64,000 nucleotides of DNA from assembly GCA_016699245.1 (NCBI GenBank), contig CP064968.1, forward strand, positions 704,317 to 768,316. Direction: 5' to 3'. Both the position numbers and the translations under genes were made by a program. The notes under the pieces are model-generated. The model saw nothing but the letters and a program-made list of their open reading frames with translations. It searched no databases and was not told where the DNA came from. Positions 1,948-55,325 of the stretch are shown here, in pieces. Position 1 is the stretch's first letter. The number at the start of each line of letters is the position of its first letter. This stretch comes from Candidatus Kaiserbacteria bacterium. Lineage in GTDB: Bacteria; Patescibacteriota; Minisyncoccia; Phycocordibacterales; UBA918.

Positions 1948-2137
1948 GAGAGTGATATATTATCTGTATAATTAAATTTATAAGTCTATGCTACCCTCCA
2001 CGGTGTAAGTAAGCAATGGGAATGGGTGGGATAAGTGGTTTGATTGAGACAAAATATTTGCGAGACGATGTGTAATTTGTACACACATTCAAAAACTTGC
2101 ACTCTGGTGCAGGTTTTTATCTTCATCTTTTATATAA

Positions 2138-2518: not shown

Positions 2519-2594
2519 ACATAAGTTGCAGATGGGTACAACAATCCTAGATTACTATACCCAGATGATATCAAAGTACCTTTTCTGTTTATTC

Positions 2595-7548: not shown

Positions 7549-7665
7549 ATTCATGAAATGTGAGCTCTGCTCACCAACACGTGCACTGCACGTGTATTTC
7601 ACTGGATAAATCCGGTGAAATGTGAGTTTCACTCACTGACACGTGCACTGCACGTGTATTTCACT
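7549..7665. repeat. Two tandem copies of a ~55-nt structured element (outer stem GGTGAAAT/ATTTCAC plus two internal hairpins), separated by ATAAAT(CC) spacers
   Basis: Copy 1 7549-7603 and copy 2 7611-7665. Each has hairpins GTGAG..CTCAC and ACACGTGCA-C-TGCACGTGT. A third related copy lies at 21390..21442. Confidence 0.8.
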
Positions 7666-7711
7666 GGATAAATATTTTTGAAGTGCAAAACGTATAGTGT
7701 ACACTTGCTGT

Positions 7712-10010: not shown

Positions 10011-10169
10011 GTAAATAATTGTTGTAGTTTTACTTAGTAATGTACATTAGTGTGTGAGCACGGGAACAAGTGGCAAAAATTAAAAGAGTTCTATAAAATA
10101 ATTATAGTAATGCCAATATATATATTGTACATCTTTGTTTGAATAGAAAACAAGAAAACGGTGGGTATA

Positions 10170-10200
10170 AAAAACCGCACGCCGTAGGCGTGCGGTTTTT
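10170..10200 (-). terminator. Intrinsic terminator after secY
   Basis: aaaaaccgcacgccgtaggcgtgcggttttt. Confidence 0.75.
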
Positions 10201-10216
10201 CTGTATTTGTTTGCTT

Positions 10217-11488
10217 CTAATACTGTCTCATCGAAACCTGTGAATCAATACGACGTACAAGGTCGATAACCACCGACACTGCAATAAGGAGTGCCGTACC
10301 ACCGATTGCGAGTGTTGTAACTCCCGTGAGAATCTGCATCGCCATAGGAAGTACGGCCACAAACCCAAGAAAGAGTGCTCCTGCAAGAGTGAGCCTCGTA
10401 ATCAATTTTCCGAGATATTCTGCGGTATGTACTCCGGGGCGAATACCCGGAATAAACGCACCATTGCGCTGCAAATTCTTTGACATCGCATCAGGGTCAA
10501 AGGTGACCGCAGTGTAGAAGAAGGTGAAGAGAATCACAAAGACAAAGTACACCACGGCGTAGAGTTCCTGATTGTTAAAGAATGCAGTCACTTTCTCAAG
10601 CAACAAAGCCACATGCGGGACATTGAATGATGAAAGAATATTCAAGACCATCTGGGGAAAGAGAATGATAGAGAGTGCAAAGATGATGGGAATCACCCCA
10701 GCCTGATTAAGGCGGAGTGGAAGATAACTGGTAGTACCCCCATAGGTCTTGCCGCCACGCACTTGCTTGGCATATGTAATCGGTACCTGCCTCTCGGCCT
10801 GCGTCATTACCACCACCCCATAGATAATACCGAGTGCAGCGATTACAAATCCAACAAAAAGCGGAATTTGTGATGCGTCAAAATTGTACATGAGTTGACC
10901 GATTGTCGCAGGAAGCGAAGCGACAATACCCGCAAAGATAATGATAGACACACCGTTCCCAATACCATACTCGGTCACCAATTCTCCAAGCCATAAAAGA
11001 AGCAAAGAACCAGCGACGACAATGAGAATGTTGATCATAAACTCAAACGTGGTAAGTCCTGAGATAACGCCCTGTGATTTCAAAAGCGAGAGGAATCCAA
11101 ACGCCTGTAAAATAGCAAGAGGGAGTGTGAGTTGGCGAGAATACTGTGTGAACTTTGCGCGACCGGTCTCCCCTTCCTCTGAATACATTGCTTTAAGAGA
11201 TGGTGACATCACGGTGAGGAGTTGCATGATAATGGATGCCGTAATAAACGGCCCGACACCAAGCATCACAATCGAGAGATTGGAAAGCCCCCCTCCTGAA
11301 AAGACATTCATGAGTCCAAGGAATTGGTTATTCTGGAAGAACTGTTGTAGGACTGTGGGGTCAACACCCGGAATTGGTACTGCAGTGAGAATGCGAAAGA
11401 CCACGAGTGCAAAGAGTACGAAGAGAACACGATCGCGAATCGCTTTTTCTCCGACAATGATTTTTAATTTTTGAAGAAAGATATCCAT
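10217..11488 (-). CDS. secY: Preprotein translocase subunit SecY
   Basis: 423-aa, 10-TM SecY family. Confidence 0.95.
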   Translation of the reverse strand: MDIFLQKLKIIVGEKAIRDRVLFVLFALVVFRILTAVPIPGVDPTVLQQFFQNNQFLGLMNVFSGGGLSNLSIVMLGVGPFITASIIMQLLTVMSPSLKAMYSEEGETGRAKFTQYSRQLTLPLAILQAFGFLSLLKSQGVISGLTTFEFMINILIVVAGSLLLLWLGELVTEYGIGNGVSIIIFAGIVASLPATIGQLMYNFDASQIPLFVGFVIAALGIIYGVVVMTQAERQVPITYAKQVRGGKTYGGTTSYLPLRLNQAGVIPIIFALSIILFPQMVLNILSSFNVPHVALLLEKVTAFFNNQELYAVVYFVFVILFTFFYTAVTFDPDAMSKNLQRNGAFIPGIRPGVHTAEYLGKLITRLTLAGALFLGFVAVLPMAMQILTGVTTLAIGGTALLIAVSVVIDLVRRIDSQVSMRQY

Positions 11489-35296: not shown

Positions 35297-35929
35297 TTAG
35301 GGGAAATTCAAAAAGAGATTATAAATAAAGAGTACTGCTGCTTGGAATGGCGTCCAGAGAATTTGCATAAATATGAAAACGCAGAGGAGTAGAGCCACAA
35401 AACCGAGTCTCTCAATGTACTGCGTCAAGGCACGGTACTTGAGCGAGAGTCGAAGAGGAAGAAATGGCACAATAATCTTTGACCCATCGAGTGGAGGAAA
35501 CGGGATTGCATTGAAGAGTGCGAGAAGAATATTGATGAATACAACGTACGTCGCCATATCGACAAAAGAAGAAGGGAGCCCCAGTGTATCCGCCATACGA
35601 ATTAAAATGGCGAAAATAAAGGCTAAAAATAAGTTTGCAAGGGGTCCTGCCGCCGCCACAAATGATTCACCCCATTTTTGATTCCTTAAATTATAGGGAT
35701 TGTACGGCACTGGCTTTGCGTATCCAAAAAGAAATGGTGCTCCCATGAAAAAAAGCACTCCCGGAATCAACACAGAGCCAATCGGGTCGATATGCACGAG
35801 AGGATTAGCGCTCAAGCGTCCTGCGAGGCGTGCAGTGGGGTCTCCGAGCCAGTTAGCTGCGTAGCCATGAGCAACCTCGTGAAAGACGATAGAAAGTATC
35901 AAAATGGCCAAAGTAATTATTTCGAGCAT
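35297..35929 (-). CDS. Site-2 protease family (M50) zinc metalloprotease
   Basis: HEVAHGY and NAIPFPPLDGS motifs, polytopic membrane protein. Confidence 0.8.
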   Translation of the reverse strand: MLEIITLAILILSIVFHEVAHGYAANWLGDPTARLAGRLSANPLVHIDPIGSVLIPGVLFFMGAPFLFGYAKPVPYNPYNLRNQKWGESFVAAAGPLANLFLAFIFAILIRMADTLGLPSSFVDMATYVVFINILLALFNAIPFPPLDGSKIIVPFLPLRLSLKYRALTQYIERLGFVALLLCVFIFMQILWTPFQAAVLFIYNLFLNFP

Positions 35930-36067: not shown

Positions 36068-36310
36068 ATGGCAAGGCAATGTGAAATAACCGGAAAGACA
36101 TCACAAGTTGGTGGACGATACAGCAACCGCACTCGTGCGACGCAGTTTAATCCATGTGGAAAGGTTCGTCGCCAGGCAAACCTCCAGAAGAAGAGAATCT
36201 TCGTTCCGGAACTTGGCAAGACTATCGTTATGACCATCTCCACAAAGGCAATGCGCACCATCGCAAAAAATGGCGCATTCGAAACCCTAAAGAAAGCAAA
36301 GCTTATTTAA
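36068..36310 (+). CDS. rpmB: 50S ribosomal protein L28
   Basis: MARQCEITGKTSQVGGRYSNRTRATQ... L28. Confidence 0.85.
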   Translation: MARQCEITGKTSQVGGRYSNRTRATQFNPCGKVRRQANLQKKRIFVPELGKTIVMTISTKAMRTIAKNGAFETLKKAKLI

Positions 36311-37172
36311 ACCAAAAGGTTACTCCATCAGTCTCTGAATTAATACTGCCAAGATCGGCAGTATTTTTATAGGTGATGCCGTGCTGGATGAGAAGATCAG
36401 TCACTTCTTTGTGCGGATGTCCATACTTATTATCTTTTCCAGCAGAAATCAAAGCGTACGTGGGTGCGACCGTTGTAAGAAATATTTCTGATGTTGAGGT
36501 ACGAGAACCATGATGCCCCACTTTAAGAACGTCACTATGCAAAAGTGAGCCATCGCGCTCTACAAGATACTCCTCTATCTTTTGTGGGGAGTCCCCGGTA
36601 AAGAGGTACGAAGTTGCACCGTACTCAAGTCTTGAAATTATCGATGAATCGTTACTCTCCATATTCGTCGGATCGTGATCGGGGAAAAGAATAGTGAGCG
36701 TTGTACTTCCTGCCTTTCCGATTCCCAAGTCATACACTTGTCTATTTCGTACATAGATAACCCTCGCCCCTTCTTCCTCTACCATTTTTTGAAACGCATC
36801 AGAGACGGGTGTATCGTTCTCATTTTCAGTCATGAGTACCGTGTCCACATCATAGCGAATGAGTACGTCGACAAGACCGCCAATGTGATCTTGGTCGGGA
36901 TGTGTCGCAACAAGCATGTCGATACTGCGATCAAAAAATCCCAATTCACGCGAGAGCACACTCAAGACTCTACTGTCTGCACCCCCATCAATGAGCACCT
37001 GTGTCCCTGAAGGAGACTCAATAAGTGTTGCGTCCCCTTGCCCAACATCAAGAAAAGAAACCTTGAGTGTCTCATTTTCACTATTTCCAGATGGGCGTAT
37101 CCCTAAAGAAAAAAGTGACAATATAAAAATAGAGATGAGTGCACCAATAGTTGGGAGGCGAAGTTCTCGCAT
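36303..37172 (-). CDS. ComEC C-terminal-type MBL-fold nuclease domain protein, separately encoded with signal anchor
   Basis: FLDVGQGDATLIE...GHHGSRTSTS...YGHP, the MBL domain typical of ComEC/Rec2. Confidence 0.65.
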   Translation of the reverse strand: MRELRLPTIGALISIFILSLFSLGIRPSGNSENETLKVSFLDVGQGDATLIESPSGTQVLIDGGADSRVLSVLSRELGFFDRSIDMLVATHPDQDHIGGLVDVLIRYDVDTVLMTENENDTPVSDAFQKMVEEEGARVIYVRNRQVYDLGIGKAGSTTLTILFPDHDPTNMESNDSSIISRLEYGATSYLFTGDSPQKIEEYLVERDGSLLHSDVLKVGHHGSRTSTSEIFLTTVAPTYALISAGKDNKYGHPHKEVTDLLIQHGITYKNTADLGSINSETDGVTFWFK

Positions 37173-37253
37173 ATCGTTATTGTATCGTATGAGTCAAAGA
37201 AAAAAGCCGGTGTGTGCATGTGCACAGTGCCGGCTCTGAAGTGACCTCTGAGG

Positions 37254-38159
37254 TCAAAAATTGTTCTGAAAGGTGCTGAGCGAATCACCAGTAATCCGCT
37301 CAAAGAAGGTGAGGCTCGCTGTGACGCCTGCACGTACAACCTCGTCAGAAAAGGTGAGCGGCGGACCACTCTTGTTTCCTCCCCACTGGCGAACAGCATC
37401 CTTTCTGAAGATTTCCCTGTCTGCCCAGGGGGGATCTTCTCCGACAATGATTTTGCTTCTTTCGACAAAACGACAGCAACTACTCGTAAGCCATTCTCCA
37501 CCAAGAGAAATCTCATTGTGAGAGCAGACTCCCACTAACGCCCTGAAGTTAACAATTTCAACTCCCTTTTTCAGAGTGAAGTTATTTCCTCTTTCATAAA
37601 CTTTATACGCAAGATCAAGAACATGTCGGGAAAGCATAGTTCGAACATTATCTCCGTTTGCCGGATTATGAGTTCCCCAATTTTCCCTCGGAGCAAATAC
37701 AACAAGTGGCAAAGAAGACATCAATGTGAGTCCTCTGGAAAAGTTGATTCCATAGGGATTTTGCAACCTTTTTTTGTAGTAATCATGCCACAGACTCCCG
37801 ACCATTCGTCGTACATAGATGAGCCTGTACGGTGCCATGAGCAATTTCTTCACGACGAGTGCACAAAGATGGAGGTCGCTCGGATATTCTCCCGGAGGAA
37901 GGTAATTATAAATTTCATTCCCAAACCTGAAAATATGCGTTGGTATACCCTGAAGAGGACCGTGTGCCCAAAACACCAACAGTGCTGTGAGCATCTGCCC
38001 CACCAGTGGAACGGGGGTTGTGTGCACAATATTATGCGTGCTGATAGCATCGGTTGCGACCATGAGAAGAAGGTTTGGATGATCCGGAATTGCGTATAAT
38101 TCCTTCATCTCCCCTTGATGGACAAGAGAAAGATTGTTGAGGTATGGTGTGCGCTTCAT
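37254..38159 (-). CDS. Divergent SAICAR synthetase (PurC) family protein
   Basis: KELYAIPDHPNLLLMVATDAISTHNIV and ...GGEWLTSSCCRFVE resemble the PurC N- and C-terminal motifs. Weak. Confidence 0.4.
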   Translation of the reverse strand: MKRTPYLNNLSLVHQGEMKELYAIPDHPNLLLMVATDAISTHNIVHTTPVPLVGQMLTALLVFWAHGPLQGIPTHIFRFGNEIYNYLPPGEYPSDLHLCALVVKKLLMAPYRLIYVRRMVGSLWHDYYKKRLQNPYGINFSRGLTLMSSLPLVVFAPRENWGTHNPANGDNVRTMLSRHVLDLAYKVYERGNNFTLKKGVEIVNFRALVGVCSHNEISLGGEWLTSSCCRFVERSKIIVGEDPPWADREIFRKDAVRQWGGNKSGPPLTFSDEVVRAGVTASLTFFERITGDSLSTFQNNF

Positions 38160-38372
38160 TGATGCTCTCCTGTTTTCAAGGTCCTATAACATAAAGGTTC
38201 TGCATATGCAGAACCACCACGTTCTAAGATACTGAATCACCAGGTGACTGTCAACAATACAGTCAAATCCTATACGCATTCTCTAATATCTCTCTCCCTT
38301 CCCTAAAAATGATATACTAGAAAAAGTACGCTTCGTCATTTATTTACTTATTTATTATCTACTACTTACTTT

Positions 38373-38975
38373 ATGCACACATACACCCCACACACATTCA
38401 CGCTTCCAGAATTACCAGGAATCTCTGAGAAACAAATCAAAGCACATCTCGGACTCTACGAGGGATATGTAAAACATGTAAACGTTCTTCGTGAACAAAT
38501 TGCAGAACTAACCCTGCTCGACAAGGAAAAGTATGCATACGCGATTATGGAGACACGTCGTCGCTTCGGCTTTGAATTTAATGGTATGCGTATGCATGAA
38601 TACTATTTCTTGCAATTTGAGGGAGGTGCTCTGCCACTCAATACCGAATCCCCGCTTGCACAGGCAGTCACGGAAAAGTATGGTTCGGTAGATGCATTTA
38701 TCACCCATTTCACACAGGTGGGTATGATGCGCGGTATTGGATGGTCAGTACTCTATGCAGACCCACTCCACAATACACTCCACACCGCATGGGTCGCCGA
38801 CCACGAACTCGGACAACTTGGTGGGCTCCCTATCATTCTCGCGATGGACATGTGGGAACACGCATTCATGGTGGACTATCTCCCCGCAGAGAAAAAGCAA
38901 TATATCGAAGCATTCCTCAAGAATGTACACTGGGCACTCCCTGAACGCCGCTTTGCCGCAACACTCGCACAATAA
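38373..38975 (+). CDS. Fe/Mn superoxide dismutase family protein (divergent)
   Basis: LPELPGISEKQIKAHLGLYEGYV, MHEYYF, DMWEHAF(M)VDY place the candidate His/His/Asp/His ligands in SOD-like positions. Confidence 0.55.
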   Translation: MHTYTPHTFTLPELPGISEKQIKAHLGLYEGYVKHVNVLREQIAELTLLDKEKYAYAIMETRRRFGFEFNGMRMHEYYFLQFEGGALPLNTESPLAQAVTEKYGSVDAFITHFTQVGMMRGIGWSVLYADPLHNTLHTAWVADHELGQLGGLPIILAMDMWEHAFMVDYLPAEKKQYIEAFLKNVHWALPERRFAATLAQ

Positions 38976-39050
38976 TTGCTCAGTGTTATTGATTGGCTCC
39001 GGTGTCTATGCTACTTTATGGACTGTTTGTAACTACGAAAGGAAAGTACA

Positions 39051-39323
39051 GTGAAGCTCATCAATAGTATATCTTCCGCGATTCTTTACTATCTTGGAAA
39101 GGAACTTGGAAAACAATCCAAAAATCGACCAGATATTACTCATCGATTTATCATCGGAATCCGAGATGGGATGGATGAGGAAAGCGTTGCTCATACATAC
39201 GGGTTTGGGGATTTATTGTGGGTATTCTGGAGGCGTTGGCATCATGAAATTGCAGACACGAATACTCATCCACCAATTCCATTCACTTCCCTTTCCGGCA
39301 CCTCAGGAAAAGGAAAGCTTTAA
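39051..39323 (+). CDS. Hypothetical small protein
   Basis: GTG start with a GGAAAG SD. A plus-strand hairpin plus T-run at 39397-39435 overlaps the comEC 3' end. Confidence 0.3.
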   Translation: MKLINSISSAILYYLGKELGKQSKNRPDITHRFIIGIRDGMDEESVAHTYGFGDLLWVFWRRWHHEIADTNTHPPIPFTSLSGTSGKGKL

Positions 39324-39371
39324 CGAGATGCAAACACAATAGAAGATGCGATTTCTTTTTATGCATGTCTA

Positions 39372-40985
39372 TCACCGAAACGGAAAAGAAGACTTGGAAT
39401 CCCCTGAAGCGCTTTGCGCTTCTCGGGATTTTTCTTTTTTAGTTTTTAATTTCTCTTTTCCTTCAACCTCTTCTTCAATTATCCATCCTGCGTAGGGGTT
39501 CTCTTCTTCGTTCTGTTTCTCACGAGTGAAATACACATACCCCACTCCCACGAGCACGTATGAAACGAGTACAATCCAAAATGGAAACGCATTCACTGAG
39601 AATGAGGCAAACGGGAGATTTCCGAAAAATTCTGCAATGCGCACAATGTACATAAGCGAAAGGTATGCAAAGAAGCCAAAAAGGGTACCGAGTGGAACAG
39701 AGACAAGCCCGAGGACACCCGTGAGAAATGTGAGTCCCATGGCGGGAGGCACCATGGGGAGCACAAGCACATTTACGACGAGTGCCACTACGGAAAAAAG
39801 TCCCATGTGGTACAAAATGAGTGGGAGAACAGCAATTTGTGTCGCGATGGTCGCGGTCACAAACATGCGGATGCCATACTTTTCTGGTACATACGTGAGT
39901 CGTTTTTCTATGTGTGGCGAAAAAAGGATAAGCCCCAACGTTGCGAGAAACGAGAGTTGGAACCCAGGATCGTGCACGAGGAGGTACGGATTCCACACAA
40001 GCATACCGACAAGTGCGAGCATGAGTGCGCGAATGACTGCATACAGTCGCCCAGTCCCCCGTGCCACAATGAGAAGAATCGCCATAAAAGATGCGCGCAG
40101 AACAGTGGATGAAAATCCGACAAGGAGTGCGAAAGTAATGACAAGCCCTATACCAAGAAACATGCGCGTTCGTGGAAAGAAAAGAAATGCGAGGACGTAC
40201 GTGATAATCTCGACCACAATCATGATGTTGTACCCCGAGAGTACAACAATATGAATGATGCCGGTCTCACGAAACGTTCGCTCAAGATCTTCTCCGAGCG
40301 CACGCTTCACGCCGAGAAGCACTCCCTCTCCCAATCCAGCAGCTGGCTCGGGCACCGCACGCTCGAGAGCATCCATGAATGCACTCTTTCCATGGTAGAG
40401 ACCCCTGAGAAATGAGTTTGTTTCACTTTTCTCAATATGTACCTTCGCATAGGGGAGTGTGTAGAAGACATTTTTTGCACGAAGGTACCCAGGGTAGTCA
40501 AAAGTACGCCCACCATCTGCCTCAAATGCTTCTGGTTTTTTAAGAACACCCTCAGCGTGTACGACATCTCCATACGAAACTCCCTCTTTTGCAAACAGAA
40601 ATCTGTCTGCAGTTACCAAGACGAGTTCATTACTTTCTTCAGTATCTGGCTTTACGTAGAGATGAATAGTCTTCGCCCGATACTCTGGTTCACGTGCGAT
40701 AACTCCATGAATTACCACATTCGTTTCCTCCTGTGCACGAAGGGGAGATTCGTACGTTTCTGCATATCCTAGACGAAACAGACCAAGCGAAGTAGAAATA
40801 AATATGAGCGCACAGAAAAAAAGTGGCGCATCAAATTGAGAAGTCTTAATACGCCACGCAACCAAGCACGCGACCCCGATAAGAAGAACGAGTGCAGCGC
40901 CCTCATAGCCAATATCAAAAAACGAGCGGATAAAAATTCCGCTCGTGAATGCTATACCAATTGTATAAAAAATTGTATTTTGCAT
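39372..40985 (-). CDS. comEC: ComEC/Rec2 DNA-uptake channel (N-terminal DUF4131 plus competence membrane domain, no MBL domain)
   Basis: 537 aa, polytopic. ...IIHIVVLSGYNIMIV...VLRASFMAILLIVA... competence-domain pattern. Confidence 0.75.
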   Translation of the reverse strand: MQNTIFYTIGIAFTSGIFIRSFFDIGYEGAALVLLIGVACLVAWRIKTSQFDAPLFFCALIFISTSLGLFRLGYAETYESPLRAQEETNVVIHGVIAREPEYRAKTIHLYVKPDTEESNELVLVTADRFLFAKEGVSYGDVVHAEGVLKKPEAFEADGGRTFDYPGYLRAKNVFYTLPYAKVHIEKSETNSFLRGLYHGKSAFMDALERAVPEPAAGLGEGVLLGVKRALGEDLERTFRETGIIHIVVLSGYNIMIVVEIITYVLAFLFFPRTRMFLGIGLVITFALLVGFSSTVLRASFMAILLIVARGTGRLYAVIRALMLALVGMLVWNPYLLVHDPGFQLSFLATLGLILFSPHIEKRLTYVPEKYGIRMFVTATIATQIAVLPLILYHMGLFSVVALVVNVLVLPMVPPAMGLTFLTGVLGLVSVPLGTLFGFFAYLSLMYIVRIAEFFGNLPFASFSVNAFPFWIVLVSYVLVGVGYVYFTREKQNEEENPYAGWIIEEEVEGKEKLKTKKEKSREAQSASGDSKSSFPFR

Positions 40986-41006: not shown

Positions 41007-41717
41007 CTACCCTGCCCACTCTGCCTTCAAAGTCATCTCCTCTTCTTTTGAAAAAACTTTTTTGAATTTTGCCTTTTTACCTTTCACACGCGCTTCACAC
41101 TCTGCCCATGTTTTCTGTGAGAGCACTTTTCCTTCGACGAGTGAAACGTATGCATACGCGGGACCAGTCTTTTTTGTTTTTGAGGATGACTTTGAAACCA
41201 CGCGCGCCTTTGGCATTGTACTGAGGAATGCATCATATGCATGTTTGGTACCCTTGAATAATTGCACCACCTCCTTGCGTGCATACCCATTTGCAATCAT
41301 GTCGACACGCTCATTGAGTGCGACCCCTTCATGTCCCCGCACATGTTCCCACGTCACCGTATGCTTCTTCACCTCTGTGAAGAGTTCTTGCCAAATATCT
41401 TTATTGAGTACATCTTTTTTTTCTTTTGTTTGCCATCCATTTTTTTCCCACCCAAAAACCCACTTGGTGATGCCGTTAATTACGTACTGCGAGTCGGTTT
41501 TGAGGGTGAGTGTTGTCTCTGGCTTGCAACTTCTGAGTGCCATGAGTGACGCAGTAAGTTCCATGCGATTATTAGTGGTGTGCGGAGCATCCCCACCCCC
41601 TTCATACGCATGGTCTCCATGAAGTACCGTGAAGCCCCACCCCCCAGGGCCTGGATTCCCAATAGCACTCCCGTCACAATAGATTGTCGTCTGTGTATCT
41701 TTATCAGAAAGTTTCAT
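41007..41717 (-). CDS. rnhA: Ribonuclease HI with ~90-aa Lys-rich C-terminal extension
   Basis: IYCDGSAIGNPGPGGWG...TNNRMEL...TDSQYV...HEGVALNERVD. Confidence 0.85.
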   Translation of the reverse strand: MKLSDKDTQTTIYCDGSAIGNPGPGGWGFTVLHGDHAYEGGGDAPHTTNNRMELTASLMALRSCKPETTLTLKTDSQYVINGITKWVFGWEKNGWQTKEKKDVLNKDIWQELFTEVKKHTVTWEHVRGHEGVALNERVDMIANGYARKEVVQLFKGTKHAYDAFLSTMPKARVVSKSSSKTKKTGPAYAYVSLVEGKVLSQKTWAECEARVKGKKAKFKKVFSKEEEMTLKAEWAG

Positions 41718-42125: not shown

Positions 42126-43844
42126 TCACTTCACAATATCAATAATACGAATACGTATCTCCTGCCTGCCCATAAAATACGATTTCTCAATATGTCCAAT
42201 GAGAGTATAGATATTCCCCTTTTCTGGCACCACTGAAAAACTGGATGGGAGACGAAAAAAAGCAATGGCATCCTGAAATCCATTTTCTGTTTTGAAACGA
42301 AGTTTTGTGTGATTTTGTGCTTTTCCAAAAATCGAAACACTCTCGGGCACTGCTTCCACAATTTCAAAAATTGGTTTTGGATTCCCCACACCAAAGGGGG
42401 CAAAGGTGTCGAGTGTGCGCATGAGTGTGTCGGTAATATCACTAAGTGTAATACGAGCATCCACTTGAAGTATGTCTGATTCGTGCGGGGTGCTGCTTTG
42501 TTCATCGTGCGCACGGACGAGTGCTTCAGGAAGGGTATGAATTGCATCATGACTGACCGAAAATCCACCCGACGCATGGTGCCCCCCGAAGGTAAGGAAT
42601 GAATCCTTCGCCTGCTCCATAATATGCACAATGCTCGATGTCCCCTCACTCCGGCATGAGCCTTTAATGATTCCCTTTCCATCACGTCCCCAAAGGAATG
42701 TGGGTTTCCCATACTCTTCTGCAAGTGCATTCGCTACCAGCCCCACGAGTGACGGACGCCATTCAGGATTTCCCATCACAATCACCGAAGGAATCAGAGA
42801 AAGTTGACCCATGCGCTTTTTAGCTTCTTTGGTCATACTCGCTACTACTCCCTTACGCTCGTTATTGAGTTTTTCAAGATGTGCGACATACATCCCCGCC
42901 TCCCCTTCATCTTTTGTTCGAAGCATATGAAAAGCATCCTCAGGGTCGTCCATGCGCGATGCGGCATTGATGCGCGGTGCAATAGTAAATCCAATATCAT
43001 CTTCGGTCAGATGTGCTTGGCTTCCTCCTGCTTTGTAGAGCAACTGCTGTATGCCAGGGCGTTTTGATTTACGCAATACCGAAAGTCCATAGCGTGCGAG
43101 TACACGGCTTTCATCCATAAGTGGCATCATATCTGCCACAGTCGCAATACCCACAAGGTCGAGCCACCATTTTTCCCATCCATCTTTTAGCGTAATGCTA
43201 CCATTTTCTTTACCGCGAATAAGAATTGCTTGCACGAGTTTAAAAGCCACCGTCGTCCCGCAAATCCCCTGAAAAGGGTACGCGTTGTTGCGCTTTGGAT
43301 TAATCACTGCATAGGCATTCGGAAGTGTGGCACTCGGCTCATGGTGGTCGGTCACAATTACATCGATACCTGCAACATTTGCTGCGTCCACCGCCTTATG
43401 GTCGGTGATACCACAATCCACGGTAATGATAAGTTCGGCCTTTCGTTCTACAAACTTCGCCACAGAGTCCACATTGAAACCATATCCCTCCTCGTGCCGG
43501 TGGGGAATATAATTTTCAAAATTGGTATACAGAATCGCGGTGAAAAAGTCATGGAGTAACACACCCCCTGGAATTCCATCACAATCATAGTCGGTATAAA
43601 TAACAATATGCTCATTGTTTTTAATAGCACGAAGTACTCGTTCCACTGCCTTTTCCATGTCAGTGAGAAGAAAGGGGCTATGCAGATGAGTCTCATAATC
43701 GGGATTAAGAAATTTTTCTGCACTCTCTGCATCGATAATGCCTCGATGAAATAAAAGTTGCTGTACAAACGTGTCATATATTCGAAGTGTATCGCTCACC
43801 TCTGGGGGAATAGGGCGCGGTGCACGAATTTTAGGATTCGTCAT
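42126..43844 (-). CDS. recJ: Single-stranded-DNA-specific exonuclease RecJ
   Basis: DHH family: YTDYDCDGIPGG, VTDHHEP, GGHHASGG. Confidence 0.85.
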   Translation of the reverse strand: MTNPKIRAPRPIPPEVSDTLRIYDTFVQQLLFHRGIIDAESAEKFLNPDYETHLHSPFLLTDMEKAVERVLRAIKNNEHIVIYTDYDCDGIPGGVLLHDFFTAILYTNFENYIPHRHEEGYGFNVDSVAKFVERKAELIITVDCGITDHKAVDAANVAGIDVIVTDHHEPSATLPNAYAVINPKRNNAYPFQGICGTTVAFKLVQAILIRGKENGSITLKDGWEKWWLDLVGIATVADMMPLMDESRVLARYGLSVLRKSKRPGIQQLLYKAGGSQAHLTEDDIGFTIAPRINAASRMDDPEDAFHMLRTKDEGEAGMYVAHLEKLNNERKGVVASMTKEAKKRMGQLSLIPSVIVMGNPEWRPSLVGLVANALAEEYGKPTFLWGRDGKGIIKGSCRSEGTSSIVHIMEQAKDSFLTFGGHHASGGFSVSHDAIHTLPEALVRAHDEQSSTPHESDILQVDARITLSDITDTLMRTLDTFAPFGVGNPKPIFEIVEAVPESVSIFGKAQNHTKLRFKTENGFQDAIAFFRLPSSFSVVPEKGNIYTLIGHIEKSYFMGRQEIRIRIIDIVK

Positions 43845-48498: not shown

Positions 48499-49914
48499 CT
48501 ATATCTCTTCCCAGAATACCGTCACATATTGATCTCCGGTAAGAGGAAAACCCGGTGGTGGTGAATACAGCAAGTTCCCATCATAATTGATATTACGCGT
48601 TGCGTAGCCTGTATTATCGGTATATGCAAATCCGTAGCGCAAATTAGTGGCAATCATCCCCCAAAGTGTTAGGGTCGAACGATCGTCATAGGGGGAACAG
48701 TCTGACTCATAATAAAGTCTTCCTACCAAGCCATTCTGCGCTATGAGCGCAGCATCAATTCGCAAATCATTTTCACTCACCATCCCCGCAAGTACGTTTC
48801 CTTGTGCAATAAGACCAATGGTGTCTGTACCATCATATTTCGTATACAGTACATCATTATTAATGATGATGTTTTTTCGTGTTGCTGCATTGTCTGGCAA
48901 GACCGCAGATACTATATTGAGACGAGCACTATTAATTTGTCCATTCACAAATACATGATCCTCAAAAAAGAGAATGCCATTACTCGGAAAGGCGTAATTA
49001 CCAAGCAATACTTGGTTTTGAACACTCCATGTTCCCCATCCTGATTGTCCGGCACTGTTATTACATCCCCCTGGTGCATTCGTCATACTGGTCACGCGAT
49101 ACAAATCGAATGTATCATTTGTTTTCAACACAACATGATATCCGAGCGAGCCCGAGCCCGGTCTATAAAACCCACTTGCCTGCGCATTTGATTTTAATTG
49201 TGACAAATTTGAGGTAATCCCCCCAAAATCAATTGAGGGTACGGGGAATGTACGTCCAATTTCAAATACATCAGCTCTTGAGGGGACGGCGGTCGGTGGT
49301 AGTGGGTCAGTGGGAAAATCGTGAGTATGAACTCCATACTCATTTACTCCGGAGTGATCGGGGTCATCATAGGTAGCTACCCCACTCGTAACCAAGTTAT
49401 GTGCAACACCATCAAATCGCAATCCTTGATTTGAATGAATAGGCCCAAACACTTCCGTTCCCGCTCCAAATCGCATCATGCTATTTGCAACAACCGCATA
49501 TTTTGCAATTGATGGTTTTGCAAACTGGACTCTGAGTGAACGTTGCACTCCCTCCAAGGTCCTCCCTGTTGAAGTAACAATCACCACTGTTGATCCAAGT
49601 GGTGGTGGTACGATTTGGAGTGAGAAATCTCCAATAATGTTGCCGTCTTTATCACGAAACGAATGAACATACGGGCCCGAAGTTGCAGTCCCATCCATAA
49701 AATCAAGAGGTGCGTGTGCAAGGTGCCAACGATAATAATCAATACCCGCCTCTGCTATTTGAATTGCTTGCTCGCGATCGGACATTCGTTGTGTTGCAAT
49801 AACATCGGTAATGCCCCATCGTACCAAACCACCTAAAAGTACCACACCGATTGAAGCACACACGAGTACCAGTATGAGAACATATCCCTTTGTTTTGTAG
49901 GTATGCATGCTCAT
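48499..49914 (-). CDS. Pilus-associated protein with pilin-like hydrophobic N-terminus (PilX-like minor pilin candidate)
   Basis: 471 aa. N-terminus KGYVLILVLVCASIGVVLLGGLV. Overlaps the next pilin gene by 4 nt (ATGA). Confidence 0.45.
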   Translation of the reverse strand: MSMHTYKTKGYVLILVLVCASIGVVLLGGLVRWGITDVIATQRMSDREQAIQIAEAGIDYYRWHLAHAPLDFMDGTATSGPYVHSFRDKDGNIIGDFSLQIVPPPLGSTVVIVTSTGRTLEGVQRSLRVQFAKPSIAKYAVVANSMMRFGAGTEVFGPIHSNQGLRFDGVAHNLVTSGVATYDDPDHSGVNEYGVHTHDFPTDPLPPTAVPSRADVFEIGRTFPVPSIDFGGITSNLSQLKSNAQASGFYRPGSGSLGYHVVLKTNDTFDLYRVTSMTNAPGGCNNSAGQSGWGTWSVQNQVLLGNYAFPSNGILFFEDHVFVNGQINSARLNIVSAVLPDNAATRKNIIINNDVLYTKYDGTDTIGLIAQGNVLAGMVSENDLRIDAALIAQNGLVGRLYYESDCSPYDDRSTLTLWGMIATNLRYGFAYTDNTGYATRNINYDGNLLYSPPPGFPLTGDQYVTVFWEEI

Positions 49915-50534
49915 AGATTGTCTTTTAGATTACGAAGATTAACCTGTGTTGTATAGATGTCTGGTGTCGAAGAGGCTGAAGAACTCGTATCGGCCACTAT
50001 ATAGATTTTGACAAGTCGTACTACCGAGATGTTAAAGGGTTCAACGAGTGGTGTACTCGTACCCGCATATGTCTCATTGTAGTATGAGAAAAGTGGAGTG
50101 GTAGTACTATTTTTGACTGCGTGCACGAGCTCCGTACGCATTTCGTTGGCGACGTTATATACCAAAGGGCTTCCTGTTGCATTGATCACCCCACGCATGA
50201 GCACACCGCTCTGGAGAAAATATCGTATACGCTCCTTTTCACTATCACTGTCTATGTCGCTATAGAATATGAGTGACGATGTCCCTGTCTGCTCGAGTGC
50301 ATACGCACCGACACTCGATGGGGATGCTGTACGTAGTTCAGCAGTCATCGTCTTTATCGCGCGACGCCCTTCTCCTGTCTGTGAAAGCGATGCAGATACG
50401 CTTCGATTCACACTAAACATGTCTATGAGAAGCTTTGTGGCTATAAGACCAATGAGTACCGCGATACCAAGTACCACAAGTATTTCAACAAGGGAAAAGC
50501 CTAGATTTTTGCGAGATGATTGTATAGTGCTCAT
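49911..50534 (-). CDS. Type IV pilin / pseudopilin (prepilin-type N-terminal cleavage motif G|FSLVE)
   Basis: MSTIQSSRKNLGFSLVEILVVLGIAVLIGLIA. Confidence 0.75.
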   Translation of the reverse strand: MSTIQSSRKNLGFSLVEILVVLGIAVLIGLIATKLLIDMFSVNRSVSASLSQTGEGRRAIKTMTAELRTASPSSVGAYALEQTGTSSLIFYSDIDSDSEKERIRYFLQSGVLMRGVINATGSPLVYNVANEMRTELVHAVKNSTTTPLFSYYNETYAGTSTPLVEPFNISVVRLVKIYIVADTSSSASSTPDIYTTQVNLRNLKDNL

Positions 50535-52327
50535 GGTAAAAGAAGTACTTCCTCGTGTGTCCAGTTATTACTCACCGTAATCGACTTGGTATACACCTGG
50601 TACCCTGATGAAGTAACCGTCAATGTATACGTGCCGGCACCAATCCCCGTAAACAACACCTGTCCTGGTGGAGTACAATTTGATGTAAACGTAAATGCCA
50701 CATCAGATACCGTTGGTGTCCAGGTACTACTTGCAGTAGCAAGGAATAGTTTATATCGGATATAGCGGTCTCCTGTATGTACTGCATGAATATCCGTGTT
50801 CGTGACATCATAATATGTTCCCAGAGTCCCATCGGGTCCTTTAAAATCCCATGTGGTCATATCATTGTTGGTAGCAACTTGTATGCGGACGCTATCTGCT
50901 CCCGTCTCTGGTGGCTGTGATTGTGGTTGCAAGAGAATCTGCTTAAATGCGCTACTCGTTCCAGTATCAAATGTAGATGATGTTAGTGTACCATTCCCTG
51001 CAAAGGCACCGAAGGTCTCTTTTAATTGTACTTGCCCTACGGGATTTATATTTTCAATATCGGTGTCATCTTCAAAATATTCGGTTGCATTGGTATACAT
51101 ACTCTGCCCATCTCCCCCCGACCAGTCAGTTTGTGACATATACCCTCGTCCTGTTATATTGGTAACATCATACCCGCTCTTTTGAAGACGTACGGTCGCA
51201 CCCGAAATAGGGAGGCCTGTACCCACATCCTTTACGGTTACTAAGAGTGTGCGTGGATTTTTGGGGACGACGATAAGCGATATGTTTTGGTGTGTATCGG
51301 GATTAAGTGTAAATGGCAATGATGGAATGGTTCCTCCTAAGTCATAGGTTACGTCAGCCACATCAAGATGATACGTGTCCCATTCAAGATCTGGAACTGT
51401 TTCTAATCCTCCACCATTCGTTGAATACGCTTGTGAAAATTTTATAACATCCGGTGGTGTTGTGCCGATAATTTTTTCTCCGGTAAGACTAAAATCTATA
51501 TTGCCGACAGGCGTACAGGTATCGGTCATACTCGTCACCTCAAATTCACTCACCGTATCAATAGAAAAACTCACCTGCGACAGTTGCTGGGACACTACCG
51601 TTGCGTGAGGTTTTGAGGGATTTGGATTTGCAACGTCACCAATCATGTACGTGCGCTCGCTCGAATACCCTGGCTTCGATACGGAAATCTCGTATGCATT
51701 GATGCCTGGTGGTGCATCAATAATTTGCACATACCCATCATTATTTGTGGTATCGTCAATAACAATAGAGGTCGTGGCGACATTGTTTTCGATATGCACA
51801 TCAGCCCCCTGAATCGCCTGCCCCGCTGCATCAAACACGTGTATAAAGAGAGCACCGTTTGTTGAAGATGTTTCGAGACCGCGTGGGCCAATATGCGATG
51901 TAAAGGACATTGGCGCAAAGTCCTTACAAAACGCACAATCGATAGTAAGTTCAGCAAGTCGATAGTCAGATGGTGAAAGATCATTTTTCGTACTACTTCC
52001 AATCTGTCCATCAAAAGGATCGTCAATATTACGTATTACTGTGGTAACCGTAAATTCAACACCATCACGTGTAAGTGTCTGGATGTGTGGAATACTACCA
52101 TTCGGAAGACCTCCTTGAATACCAACATCCTCATAGGAAAGGTTTCGTATGATTTCCATTTGTTCATTTGCGAGAGCAGTTGCAGTAACTTTATTTTGTG
52201 ACACGAGGGCTACTCGAACAACAGTCGAAAAAGTTTCGTACAAAGCGAGGGCAATCATGAGAAAAATCGTTGTCGCAACAATCACTTCAATGAGTGTAAT
52301 TCCTGCACATGTGCGTTTATTGTTCAT
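50531..52327 (-). CDS. Large pilin-like protein (prepilin-type N-terminus G|ITLIEV), 598 aa
   Basis: ATG at 52327 gives the leader MNNKRTCAG|ITLIEVIVATTIFLMIALALY. The longer ORF to 52366 overlaps pilC. Confidence 0.65.
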   Translation of the reverse strand: MNNKRTCAGITLIEVIVATTIFLMIALALYETFSTVVRVALVSQNKVTATALANEQMEIIRNLSYEDVGIQGGLPNGSIPHIQTLTRDGVEFTVTTVIRNIDDPFDGQIGSSTKNDLSPSDYRLAELTIDCAFCKDFAPMSFTSHIGPRGLETSSTNGALFIHVFDAAGQAIQGADVHIENNVATTSIVIDDTTNNDGYVQIIDAPPGINAYEISVSKPGYSSERTYMIGDVANPNPSKPHATVVSQQLSQVSFSIDTVSEFEVTSMTDTCTPVGNIDFSLTGEKIIGTTPPDVIKFSQAYSTNGGGLETVPDLEWDTYHLDVADVTYDLGGTIPSLPFTLNPDTHQNISLIVVPKNPRTLLVTVKDVGTGLPISGATVRLQKSGYDVTNITGRGYMSQTDWSGGDGQSMYTNATEYFEDDTDIENINPVGQVQLKETFGAFAGNGTLTSSTFDTGTSSAFKQILLQPQSQPPETGADSVRIQVATNNDMTTWDFKGPDGTLGTYYDVTNTDIHAVHTGDRYIRYKLFLATASSTWTPTVSDVAFTFTSNCTPPGQVLFTGIGAGTYTLTVTSSGYQVYTKSITVSNNWTHEEVLLLP

Positions 52328-52328
52328 A

Positions 52329-53558
52329 CTAACCAATACTATCTGAGAGCGAGTAGATAGGTGCAATCATCGCAAGGGCGAAGAATCCAACACCAGCACC
52401 AATGACCACCATGAGTATTGGTTCGATGATGGTTGAGAGGTCTTTGGTCTTTTGTTCAACTTCAGTTTCATAGAAAACAGCAATTTCTGTAAGCATTTGT
52501 GAGATTTGACCCGTTTCCTCTCCAACAGAGATCATCTCACCTACCAGAATAGGATAAATCTCCTCGTGGGCAATAAATGTCTCAGAAAGTGGACTCCCTT
52601 TCTCTACATGGAGCGCTGCCTCTTTCAAAACACGCTTGTAGTACACATTTTGGAGTACATCTTCGGTTATATTAATGGCGCTAATTACATCAACACCCGA
52701 TGAAAGAAGGGATGAGAGTGTGCGTGCGGTATAGGCGGAATTGGTTTGCTTCACTATGTTTCCAATTACCGGTAAGTGGATAAAAATAAAATGGAGACCT
52801 TTCCTTCCAAAAGTAGTCTTACTGATACCAATGATACTCCCCACAAAAGTAACAAAGCCGAGGATTGCCATTGCGCTGTGATTCGTGACAAAATCACTCA
52901 CGCTGATAACAAATTGTGTGCTACTCGGGAGTTCAGTGCCAGACTTTGTGAAGGTCTCCGTAAGGGTGGGCACTACAAAAATCATCATGAGAACACCAAT
53001 AATACACATGACCGAAAGAACAATGGTGGGATACATCATTGCTCCTTTGATTTTTTTCTTGAGATTTGATGACCGTTCGAGTTGCATCGCGATAGTTTGC
53101 AGTGCCGGCACCATTCCTCCACTCTCCTCACCAGCACGCACCATCGCTACATACAAACGTGAAAAGGTTCCGGGAAATGCTTTGAGCGCTTCATGAAACG
53201 GGTCACCTTTGTTGATACTTTCGCGAACATGTACCATTACCCCTTTCAAGCGAGGATTTTTCGATTGACGTTCAATCACTGAAAGAGCGCGTGAAAGCGG
53301 GAGTCCGGCTTTAAGCATCGAGGATAGGTTGCGTGTTGTCATCACCAGCTCGTCTGCTTTGACGCGACTGAGGTAATAGTTGATACGCTCTATGTTAAGG
53401 AAGCGCGCGAGCGAAAATTTCCCCTGTTCCTGTATATTCGTGACCACATGACCACTCGTACGCGCGATTTCATACACCGCATATTTATCAACCGCCTCAA
53501 CAGTCTCGGTTATTTTTTCTCCGTCTTTTGTGGTGCCTGTATACGTGAATTTTTCCAT
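52329..53558 (-). CDS. pilC: Type IV pilus assembly / T2SS platform protein PilC/GspF family
   Basis: 409 aa, GspF-domain pattern, three TM segments. Confidence 0.8.
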   Translation of the reverse strand: MEKFTYTGTTKDGEKITETVEAVDKYAVYEIARTSGHVVTNIQEQGKFSLARFLNIERINYYLSRVKADELVMTTRNLSSMLKAGLPLSRALSVIERQSKNPRLKGVMVHVRESINKGDPFHEALKAFPGTFSRLYVAMVRAGEESGGMVPALQTIAMQLERSSNLKKKIKGAMMYPTIVLSVMCIIGVLMMIFVVPTLTETFTKSGTELPSSTQFVISVSDFVTNHSAMAILGFVTFVGSIIGISKTTFGRKGLHFIFIHLPVIGNIVKQTNSAYTARTLSSLLSSGVDVISAINITEDVLQNVYYKRVLKEAALHVEKGSPLSETFIAHEEIYPILVGEMISVGEETGQISQMLTEIAVFYETEVEQKTKDLSTIIEPILMVVIGAGVGFFALAMIAPIYSLSDSIG

Positions 53559-53567
53559 AGGAACACA

Positions 53568-55325
53568 TTACTCAGAAATAACACGAAGTACTTCTTCAAT
53601 ACTTGTTTGTCCCAGTGCCGCTTTGTAGATACCGTCCTCGAGCATGGTGAGCATGTCCTCTTTACGCGCCTGTGCTTCAATAGCGTCTGCGGTACCTGAG
53701 GCAAGGACGATCTCTTTGATGCTCGGTGACACGTGGAGCACTTCATGAATGCCAATACGCCCCTTGTAGCCATCATCCTCTGGACCTTCCTTTGCCCGAT
53801 AAAATGGAATACTGTTCCATGTTGCGTTACTTTTCACTACTCCTTCTTTCTTGAGTGCATCAAGAATTCGGTCCATGTCGACGTGTTTTTCAATCTGTGC
53901 ACGCTCAGTGGCGCTCAGTGTGTAGGATTCTTTAGAGTCGGTAAGACGGCGTACGAGGCGTTGCCCCACCACCACATGCAGTGTGGATACGAGAAGGAAT
54001 GTCTCTACCCCCATATCGACAAGACGCGCTACTGTCGCTGAAGCGGAATTGGTGTGCACCGTGGCAAGTACGGAGTGTCCTGTGAGGGCCGCATTAATGG
54101 CGAGTGATGCCGTTTCTTGGTCACGAATTTCTCCCACCATAATGACGTCGGGATCTTGGCGCATAAGTGAGCGCAGTCCATTTGCAAATGAGAATCCAAT
54201 TTCAGGCTTTACTTGCGTCTGATTCACTCGTGCCATCTGGTATTCGACAGGATCTTCGATGGTACAAATGTTTACCTCGGGTGTGTTTAAAATATCGAGC
54301 ACAGTATAGAGCGTCGTGGTCTTACCAGAACCTGTAGGGCCCGTAACCAAAATGATTCCCGTTGTTTGCTTTGTGGCAGCGTAAATACGCTCAAGCGCCT
54401 GACCGTGAAATCCGAGTCCTTCAAGGGTATAGCCTGAACGCCCTTCGCGGAGAAGGCGCATAACGAGCTTTTCTCCAAAGAAAATAGGGAGGATAGAAAC
54501 ACGAAACGACACTTTTTGTCCATCCATCTCCATTTTAAAGCGTCCGTCTTGCGGTAAACGCTTTTCGTCGAGTTTCAAATTTGAAAGGACCTTAATACGC
54601 GCAGAAATGGTAGGTGCCGCATGCTTGGGGAGAGACATTGCATCATGGAGGATACCGTCAATACGATAGCGAACGAGGAGTTCATTCTCCATTGGTTCAA
54701 TATGGATATCAGATGCTGATTGAATAATAGCGTGATGAAGGAGTGTATCCACGATACGCACAACGGGCAAATCTTCTGCCATCTTTTTCAAGTCTTCTTC
54801 CGATGCTTCTTCCCCGCCATCTTCAGCAAGAATACGAAGCGCGGAGGACTCCTTTGCAATCAAGTCACCAAATTCATCCTTGAGGGTTTTTTGATATTGC
54901 TGAAGTGCATACTTCATTGATTCGGTGTCGGTGAGACGTGGAAGAATTTTGAGTCCCACCTTTTTCTTTACAAAGTCGATTGCCGGAAGGTCGGCAGTAT
55001 CGAGCATAGCAACCTCAAGAACATCATCAGCCTTGCGATAGGCAATAATATTATGATTTCGGGCCACAGGTTCAGGGATGAGCGAAAGGACTTCAAAAGG
55101 GATTTTTATGCCGTTGAGTGCCAAAAAGGGTACGCCGAGTACATATGATTCCACGCGTCGCAAATCATCCTCGGACATTGTTCCACTTGAAATGAGTGCC
55201 TCAGCAAGAGTACGCTTTTCTTCTATTGCTACTTTTTCGGCAGCATCAATATCCTTTCGGGTTACCAAACCCGAATCCATCACAAAACGCTTGAGTTGTG
55301 TATCTTGTATACGCATTGCCTCCAA
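53568..55325 (-). CDS. pilB: Type IV pilus assembly ATPase PilB/GspE family
   Basis: Walker A LVTGPTGSGKTTTL, GspE N-domain, tetracysteine-like region. Confidence 0.85.
   Translation of the reverse strand: MEAMRIQDTQLKRFVMDSGLVTRKDIDAAEKVAIEEKRTLAEALISSGTMSEDDLRRVESYVLGVPFLALNGIKIPFEVLSLIPEPVARNHNIIAYRKADDVLEVAMLDTADLPAIDFVKKKVGLKILPRLTDTESMKYALQQYQKTLKDEFGDLIAKESSALRILAEDGGEEASEEDLKKMAEDLPVVRIVDTLLHHAIIQSASDIHIEPMENELLVRYRIDGILHDAMSLPKHAAPTISARIKVLSNLKLDEKRLPQDGRFKMEMDGQKVSFRVSILPIFFGEKLVMRLLREGRSGYTLEGLGFHGQALERIYAATKQTTGIILVTGPTGSGKTTTLYTVLDILNTPEVNICTIEDPVEYQMARVNQTQVKPEIGFSFANGLRSLMRQDPDVIMVGEIRDQETASLAINAALTGHSVLATVHTNSASATVARLVDMGVETFLLVSTLHVVVGQRLVRRLTDSKESYTLSATERAQIEKHVDMDRILDALKKEGVVKSNATWNSIPFYRAKEGPEDDGYKGRIGIHEVLHVSPSIKEIVLASGTADAIEAQARKEDMLTMLEDGIYKAALGQTSIEEVLRVISE

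Follow-up and report, generated by a model that had tools for sequence, protein, structure and literature searches.

Introduction

ComEC is the universal inner-membrane importer of DNA in natural transformation, and about half of the known ComEC proteins are devoid of a nuclease domain. Members of the CPR (Candidate Phyla Radiation), also called Patescibacteria, are believed to rely on nucleic acids that they import. Here we analyse the comEC locus in a 64,000 nt stretch of a Candidatus Kaiserbacteria genome (assembly GCA_016699245.1, contig CP064968.1, forward strand positions 704,317 to 768,316), which is referred to as the window and in which positions are counted from the first nucleotide. 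Two genes on the minus strand are in question: a channel gene (39372..40985, 537 aa) and a gene for a protein with a metallo-beta-lactamase (MBL) domain, the candidate nuclease subunit (36303..37172, 289 aa). An earlier note on this DNA had regarded them as a ComEC split into separate channel and MBL genes with unrelated genes in between, and this view is backed by domain, sequence, structural and comparative data.

ComEC variants without MBL domain are well known (PMC6299819). The CPR were reported to be without ComEC-MBL fusions, and a profile of DUF4131 plus Competence domain is the norm in this group (PMC6744442). Strand degradation by systems without a nuclease domain has been called an open question (PMC8579336). 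The only experimental data from Patescibacteria concern a channel-only protein: in the cultured Saccharibacterium Southlakia epibionticum, a 482 aa ComEC with DUF4131 and Competence domains (SEML1_0777) is needed for transformation (PMC10633639). The channel protein of the window has exactly the same profile as such MBL-less proteins (the 'DC' profile, Pimentel & Zhang 2018), but the nuclease domain survives here as a separate gene with its own anchor, which resembles the last transmembrane (TM) helix, TM11, of full-length ComEC.

Canonical ComEC/Rec2, as found in Bacillus subtilis and Neomoorella carbonis (PDB entry 30bt) and described by the NCBIfam model TIGR00361, is a single polypeptide. 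Cryo-electron microscopy (cryo-EM) of the N. carbonis protein (ComECNc) revealed 11 TM helices, three of them ahead of the OB fold, and a short cytoplasmic helix between TM10 and TM11, with TM11 missing from the density of one protomer; a flexible linker tethers the nuclease domain, which is kept in position by touching the loop between beta strands IV and V of the OB fold through a small conserved contact (PMC13539106). Module order and inferred topology are the same at our locus (TM1-3, OB fold, channel, last TM helix, linker, nuclease), and the HxDxDH metal site, the OB fold's aromatic residues at the mouth of the channel and the channel histidine are also present. Unlike in the canonical protein, these modules are distributed over two polypeptides, whose genes are 2.2 kb apart and cannot be co-transcribed, and the channel half has an extra conserved acidic C-terminal tail.

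Two other systems are worth comparing. EndA of Streptococcus pneumoniae is a separate nuclease unrelated to ComEC, which in this species keeps a probably inactive domain, whereas the nuclease acting in trans would here be the ComEC domain itself. Split-Doa10 (PMC3464245) is an example of a polytopic membrane protein naturally split by gene fission and likewise broken in a loop between TM helices, with membrane segments retained by both fragments and reassociation being possible; for ComEC the comparison is by analogy only.

Results and Discussion

The Two Genes Encode Complementary Parts of ComEC

Pfam annotation assigned complementary domains to the two ORFs (open reading frames). As the earlier note had stated, the channel ORF carries DUF4131 (PF13567, aa 31-177, E = 6.5e-16, 58.9 bits) and the Competence domain (PF03772, aa 223-487, E = 5.9e-50, 170.6 bits versus a cut-off of 23) and stops before any MBL domain: Pfam detected none on this ORF, which ends after TM10 and a tail. 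The protein encoded by the second gene contains Lactamase_B (aa 42-245, E = 8e-14). Its best NCBIfam match is TIGR00361, positions 438-662 of 663 (133.5 bits, E = 6.9e-39), while the channel protein matches positions 60-405 of the same model (75.0 bits). The E-values of these domain matches lie well outside chance expectation. Neither half reaches the equivalog cut-off of 190.05 bits, and because their model coverage is complementary, we consider the two ORFs as complementary pieces of one family model. Both halves also align to ComECNc (30bt, 801 aa): channel residues 134-464 to ComECNc 141-475 (E = 1.7e-24), and residues 12-284 of the MBL protein to 513-789 (E = 3e-29). Common ancestry of the two halves is well supported.

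The AlphaFold2 (AF2) model of the channel protein (predicted local distance difference test, pLDDT, 85) comprises helices at aa 4-22, 27-47 and 53-76, a beta domain at aa 89-186, further helices up to aa 469-493 and a disordered tail. The first three helices (TM1-TM3, aa 4-76; 40758..40976, minus strand) correspond to the three TM helices ahead of the OB fold of N. carbonis ComEC (PMC13539106). The beta strands together with DUF4131 define the OB fold (40428..40721, minus strand), and PF03772 together with the model defines the channel domain, with the last TM helix at aa 469-493 (39525..40319, minus strand). Within the OB domain, the best-conserved stretch in an alignment of 62 split channel proteins (A4) is the loop P151..F154..G159..F162-D-Y164, which is invariant and continues into a helix as P-G-Y167-L. 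In ComECNc, this OB loop is the one in contact with the nuclease domain. Y164 and Y167 align with the tyrosines Y169 and Y172 at the channel mouth of ComECNc, and H245 aligns with H254 at its channel constriction. A Foldseek search of the PDB with the channel model gave weak matches to OB folds (SSB, tRNA synthetases; best E = 0.0076, target-normalised TM-score up to 0.66); the library, which extends to April 2026, is without the full-length ComEC cryo-EM entries 30bt and 9vc6, and this search was uninformative on the membrane domain.

Behind the last TM helix follows an acidic, disordered C-terminal tail of about 45 aa, predicted to be cytoplasmic (aa 494-537; 39375..39506, minus strand), with a pLDDT below 50 over aa 504-531. 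It contains the clade-conserved motif NPYxxWxIEEE...FPFR, in which W501 is invariant, I503 nearly so, and FPFR is the consensus terminus (A4). Such a tail is typical of channel proteins of the Kaiserbacteria-like clade; those of other Patescibacteria end soon after TM10 with a short tail of K/R residues. Judged from its sequence, the acidic tail could be a docking peptide.

The Nuclease Gene Retains TM11 and the Catalytic Motifs

The earlier note had described the product of 36303..37172 as a signal-anchored MBL protein of the ComEC type, and this description held for the N-terminal helix, the Lactamase_B domain, the TIGR00361 match and the fold. The N-terminal membrane helix (aa 2-24; 37101..37169, minus strand) was recognised by Kyte-Doolittle hydropathy (19-residue maximum of 2.08 at aa 7-25), by AF2 and by alignment to ComECNc, where aa 12-32 correspond to residues 513-535, the last TM helix. 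In the AF2 model (pLDDT 91.7) helix 2-24 is followed by a low-confidence linker (aa 25-32) and the MBL domain. [quoted passage not shown]

Catalytic and DNA-handling motifs are intact. H91-P-D93-Q-D95-H96 (36885..36902, minus strand) is the metal-binding motif of the ComEC type (HxDxDH). It shows no variation in alignments A1 and A3, and D194, H220/H221 and H252/H254 are, like the motif itself, unchanged across 64 homologues. The same type of motif is found in the Moorella ComEC domain (H598-x-D600-x-D602-H603; PMC12455585). The loop N248-x-Y250-G-H252-P is likewise invariant in the 64 homologues, and N248-K-Y250-G-H252-P aligns with NNFGHP of Moorella. By its position, not by alignment, this loop would be the counterpart of the loop 2 pin of Legionella pneumophila (R688/F689/F691); Legionella requires the aromatic residues of the pin to be transformed. 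In comparison to the closest relative at the DNA level (L093), the ratio of nonsynonymous to synonymous substitution rates (dN/dS) of the nuclease gene is 0.046. The protein is a putative metal-dependent DNase.

The polypeptide chain of ComEC is interrupted in the cytoplasmic loop between TM10 and TM11. Since the cryo-EM structure shows a cytoplasmic helix between TM10 and TM11, lacks TM11 in one protomer and has a flexible linker, the break is located at a naturally separable joint. Two arginines (R3 and R5) precede the helix of the nuclease protein, and these residues as well as the charged tail of the channel protein fit a break on the cytoplasmic side. According to the positive-inside rule, the N terminus would be inside and the nuclease domain outside the membrane.

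The Split Is Common to All Sampled Patescibacteria

To learn how ComEC is organised in relatives, one genome per species was scanned, resulting in 80 loci with 10 kb flanks (best identity 60%), and the ORFs of each locus were analysed. The split is not a peculiarity of this locus: a separate MBL ORF of about 285-300 aa is present in all 53 Patescibacteria loci, including loci fetched later, and for this reason we interpret the split as a clade-wide gene fission. In 12 of these loci the channel gene is located immediately upstream of the MBL gene in an operon-like arrangement, with intergenic distances of −26, −4, +115, +1, +36, −26, +3, −8, +36, +135, +5 and −4 nt; the genomes are labelled as Moranbacteria, Magasanikiibacteriota, Giovannonibacteria, Parcubacteria group, 'Patescibacteria group' and others. 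In 41 of 45 split MBL ORFs, K/R residues are followed by a TM segment at the N terminus, and the four exceptions look like mis-called starts or a broken assembly.

Most Chloroflexota loci encode a fused ComEC of 800-930 aa, and in the Firmicutes loci the MBL genes stand alone, a channel gene being absent from the surrounding 10 kb. In a neighbour-joining (NJ) tree of MBL domains, the Patescibacteria form one clade (bootstrap 58) next to the domains of fused Chloroflexota ComEC proteins and apart from the stand-alone Firmicutes proteins (bootstrap 99). The latter are similar in size (~290-370 aa), belong to the same MBL subfamily and share about 36-41% identity, but they constitute a separate clade, while the Patescibacteria proteins are linked to a channel gene. 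One locus of Anaerolineales (Chloroflexota, L052) has a 754 aa ComEC (1451-3715) and, 6 kb away, a separate TM-anchored ComEC-type MBL protein of 288 aa (9962-10828); because of this locus, stand-alone MBL copies must be considered to arise also outside the Patescibacteria.

The lengths of database homologues are in agreement with separate genes. The best 120 homologues of each half are proteins of ~255-313 aa with an MBL domain only, or of ~463-577 aa with DUF4131 and Competence only. An exhaustive search among representatives of 50%-identity clusters returned 5,465 proteins matching the MBL protein at E ≤ 1e-30; among the best 150 of them, 142 have at most 340 aa, and two (812 and 818 aa) have the length of ComEC and match in their C-terminal part.

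These data indicate that the sampled Patescibacteria did not lose the nuclease domain. Along with TM11, it was split off and persists as a highly conserved gene of its own. The fission looks old, clade-wide and common to all sampled Patescibacteria, with the Chloroflexota as nearest outgroup being fused. The simplest history is a single fission of a fused ancestor, followed by looser linkage of the two genes.

The Halves May Reassemble to a Two-Subunit ComEC

In the scenario that we favour, an ancestral three-domain ComEC would have been cut in the TM10-TM11 cytoplasmic loop, giving rise to a channel subunit (TM1-3, OB fold, TM4-10, cytoplasmic tail) and a nuclease subunit (TM11, flexible linker, extracytoplasmic beta-lactamase-like nuclease domain). 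The primitive state would be a pair of genes that abut or overlap. In part of the Paceibacteria, an opposite-strand gene for superoxide dismutase (SOD) would have come to separate the halves, and a purE-purC module would have been added in the immediate lineage of the window, of which only a degenerate purC-like gene is left. The nuclease subunit is predicted to insert with the N terminus inside and the MBL domain outside, and may dock on the channel by TM11 and the conserved interface of OB loop and MBL domain. At the mouth of the channel it would degrade the strand that is not translocated, and the remaining strand would pass into the cell, to be cut to nucleotides by cytoplasmic RecJ, which is encoded next door, or to be recombined. 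We estimate the probability that a TM11-anchored nuclease docks on the channel and removes the non-translocated strand at the channel mouth to be about 0.62.

Several observations weigh against such a two-subunit ComEC. The association of the two proteins is putative, and conservation of the nuclease domain and of the OB loop could both be explained by DNA binding alone. In the window and its relatives with an SOD gene on the opposite strand between the halves, the two genes are not co-transcribable and stoichiometric co-expression is not enforced. The hairpin between the purC-like gene and the nuclease gene (37196..37234, minus strand) has a predicted folding energy of −22.3 kcal/mol (z = −4.4; 0 of 200 shuffled sequences were as stable) and is followed by a U-run; it is located in the spacer that separates the purC-like stop codon from the nuclease start codon and appears terminator-like, which would also uncouple expression. 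A distance of 1.8-8 kb separates the halves in six loci. Monophyly of the Patescibacteria MBL domains has a bootstrap value of only 58%, and the N-terminal helix may be cleaved as a signal peptide. Finally, a ComEC-type MBL protein was not found by annotation name in the gene tables of S. epibionticum (supplements of PMC10633639), and since this organism transforms, a channel-only ComEC can suffice.

In the same tables, SEML1_0132-0134 comprise an 'MBL fold metallo-hydrolase' gene adjoining genes for L28 and a site-2 protease, which is the position that the nuclease gene has in the window (PMC10633639 supplement). The S. epibionticum protein has 211 aa and matches PF13483, not PF00753; it may have degenerated from the nuclease subunit, or its position may be coincidental.

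The strongest alternative is that both proteins descend from ComEC but no longer form one machine. The MBL protein would then be an independent anchored or secreted surface nuclease or phosphodiesterase that scavenges nucleotides from environmental or host DNA, and the channel would import DNA alone or with another nuclease. Besides the uncoupled transcription, the drift of the halves by up to 8 kb in several genomes and transformation of S. epibionticum by a channel-only protein, the related Firmicutes proteins without nearby channel gene are in favour of this view. De novo synthesis of nucleotides is also generally considered to be missing from CPR bacteria (PMC6744442), and in one relative (L089, 5846-7909) a purE-purC pair adjoins a gene for a secreted-type nuclease of the SNase (staphylococcal nuclease) family. 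Yet many lineages of Patescibacteria still have the two genes overlapping or abutting, the nuclease protein has kept its TM11-like anchor and linker, both the pin loop and the nuclease-docking OB loop are preserved, and the Firmicutes proteins are a clade of their own. We therefore regard an independent nuclease as rather unlikely, though as the most serious competitor of the two-subunit ComEC.

It is very improbable that the MBL ORF encodes an unrelated hydrolase, such as a Pce-like phosphorylcholine esterase or a beta-lactamase, and that a complete ComEC is encoded elsewhere or the nuclease domain is simply lacking. Pce is indeed the second-best structural match, weak NCBIfam matches to B3 beta-lactamase and Avs1a models were obtained, and NCBI, which holds both halves at 100% identity (Candidatus Kaiserbacteria) as 'ComEC/Rec2 family competence protein' and 'MBL fold metallo-hydrolase', uses a mere fold name for the second; the search for another ComEC in this genome covered the 64 kb window, in which no second Competence-domain ORF was present. 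But Pce is also the nearest structural neighbour of the authentic ComEC nuclease domain (PMC12455585), the top family, sequence and fold matches (TIGR00361, 30bt and 9ic4) are all to ComEC, the metal motif is of the ComEC type, and linkage to the channel gene is conserved. Moreover, published surveys report that genomes have a single Competence-domain protein each and that fused ComEC is nearly absent from the CPR (PMC6299819, PMC6744442).

That the split reflects a frameshift from sequencing or assembly, or a pseudogene in decay, is ruled out by the comparative data and has a negligible probability, since nothing specific points to it (the MBL gene is fragmented on the related metagenome contig L087), while the halves are separated by 2.2 kb with two intact genes, hundreds of independent homologues of each half share their lengths, the dN/dS value is low and all catalytic residues are intact.

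A further extension of the two-subunit ComEC is conceivable, which we consider quite improbable. The cell might switch a genuine two-subunit Patescibacterial ComEC between two modes: transformation, with degradation of one strand and import of the other, and feeding, with free surface nuclease turning DNA into nucleotides. A catalytically dead but maintained PurC-like protein might have been recruited beside the nuclease gene. If all this were true, it would be a natural answer, in a very large clade, to the question how 'nuclease-less' ComEC proteins dispose of the non-transforming strand.

Both proteins were already annotated and the absence of the fusion from CPR is published, so the interpretation of the MBL protein as a nuclease subunit acting in trans is a modest new variant. 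JGI labels many stand-alone MBL proteins as 'competence protein ComEC'. Within a literature coverage that is incomplete, we found no paper in which the nuclease domain of the CPR is described as surviving in a TM11-anchored gene of its own beside comEC. The arrangement is an architectural variant of a well-known protein, informative for the competence and CPR fields, and not a new kind of system. It affects the scoring of competence genes, because counting Competence-domain proteins alone misses the nuclease. The TM10-TM11 loop represents a natural split site, which is of use to structural biologists and biochemists because ComEC is difficult to express, and the split is a natural test of the need for a tether between nuclease and channel. 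For organisms that presumably rely on nucleic acid import, the arrangement may have consequences for feeding.

Genes Between the Halves

The earlier note had called both intervening genes odd, which applies to only one of them. The SOD gene (38373..38975, plus strand; Pfam Sod_Fe_C, 73.6 bits, below the NCBIfam equivalog cut-offs) encodes an ordinary Fe/Mn SOD: it matches Aquifex FeSOD (1coj) over the full length, and the four metal ligands (His, His, Asp, His) are conserved at KAH, MHEYY and DMWEH. An SOD gene on the opposite strand between the halves is recurrent at this site, being present in about 20 of the 80 loci and also in L081-L083, L086 and L091. A functional tie between SOD and ComEC was considered and rejected: the gene is on the opposite strand, the enzyme is an ordinary one, and it is missing from lineages with adjacent halves. 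Two loci with overlapping halves and no SOD gene (L012, L015) nest among SOD-interrupted loci (L011 and others) in the weakly supported NJ tree of MBL domains; either SOD was inserted more than once at the site, or the tree misplaces these loci.

The other intervening gene, which is directly upstream of the nuclease gene (37254..38159, minus strand, 301 aa), is indeed unusual. Its product matches SAICAR_synt (E = 7e-19) and stays far below the cut-offs of the PurC models (99.1 bits versus 251 for TIGR00081, 51.5 versus 189.9 for PRK13961). The motifs that we take to bind ATP, Mg and CAIR are changed: GKVR(D/E) to GEMKE, FTPTEKS to FAPRENW, DxKxE to NxRxL, and L(A/G)DE to LGGE. These replacements occur in the proteins of the window and L093, whereas all 13 other members of this rare family (15 database matches, alignment A2) retain the motifs. 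Because the motifs are lost and dN/dS in comparison to L093 is 0.106, the protein is, as far as can be read from its sequence, probably a pseudo-enzyme or has changed its function, rather than being the product of a decaying gene.

A purC-like gene is absent from L001-L083. In L086 (6422-7909) and L091 (1035-2550) a purE(AIRC)-purC pair is located between the SOD and the MBL gene, and in L089 the pair is elsewhere, as mentioned above. The window and the 93%-identical L093 (717-1622) have purC alone, 213-215 nt from the SOD gene. A tblastn search of the whole window with the neighbours from relatives (purE/AIRC, DsrE, an 89 aa ORF, SET and others) gave no matches, and the purE partner is therefore truly missing from the window. 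The purC-like gene is a recent, lineage-specific insertion under purifying selection and looks catalytically dead. The purE-purC module occurs in a few Paceibacteria, a lineage otherwise thought to be without purine synthesis, and a lone pair of PurE and PurC steps is metabolically unexplained.

Upstream of the purC-like gene (38196-38254, minus strand) a promoter-like sequence (TTGACA-17-TATCTT), the joint best of the region, is followed by a second hairpin. The scan for sigma-70 promoters and terminators gave results at or below the expectation from shuffled sequences, and its sites do not count as evidence, except for the hairpin at 37196..37234, which was folded separately.

Genomic Context

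Upstream of the channel gene, an RNase H gene (41007..41717, minus strand; Pfam RNase_H) ends 21 nt before the channel start codon, followed by recJ (42126..43844, minus strand; Pfam DHH, DHHA1, RecJ_OB). The order RecJ-RNase H-ComEC was found in at least 25 loci, and in many Patescibacteria loci RNase H is directly upstream of the channel gene. On the other side, the L28 gene (36068..36310, plus strand) overlaps the nuclease gene by 8 nt at its 3′ end and is followed by a gene for an M50 site-2 protease (35297..35929, minus strand). The order MBL-L28-M50 is also seen in L081-L083, L086 and L091. In the close relatives L081-L083 (66-74% MBL identity) the order is RecJ, small ORF, RNase H, channel, SOD on the opposite strand, MBL, L28 on the opposite strand, M50, ..., S12, S7, which matches the window except that purC is absent.

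The idea of a modular DNA-uptake system, put forward in the earlier note from recJ, pilB/pilC and pilin genes nearby, over-reads the neighbourhood. Synteny of RecJ, RNase H and ComEC is conserved, but the pil genes are set apart from it. According to profile annotation, PilB, PilC and two pilin-like genes are at 49911..55325, that is 6-11 kb beyond RecJ, with HIT, NUDIX, PGK and TIM intervening, and the window as a whole is a housekeeping region. One flank comprises the S10/spc ribosomal operon, SecY, Adk, Map, NDK, EF-Tu, EF-G, S7, S12, M50 and L28; on the other flank the ComEC region is followed by RNase H, RecJ, HIT, NUDIX, PGK and TIM, and on the far side by the two pilin-like genes, PilC, PilB and NusA.

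Scans of the window for Rfam families and tRNAs found nothing. The order RecJ - (small ORF) - RNase H - channel is kept across many Patescibacteria and may reflect a functional link between import and exonucleolysis. The RNase H protein of the window has 236 aa, with a Lys-rich C-terminal extension of about 90 aa past the Pfam domain (aa 8-143). A second gene of the MBL superfamily (2595-3953, minus strand) encodes a 452 aa protein with beta-CASP and RMMBL domains, which resembles RNase J and is unrelated to the ComEC-type MBL. At 6979-8338 (plus strand), two adjacent cytidylate-kinase-like/AAA_17 genes beside those for adenylate kinase and NDK make up a small cluster of nucleotide-salvage kinases.

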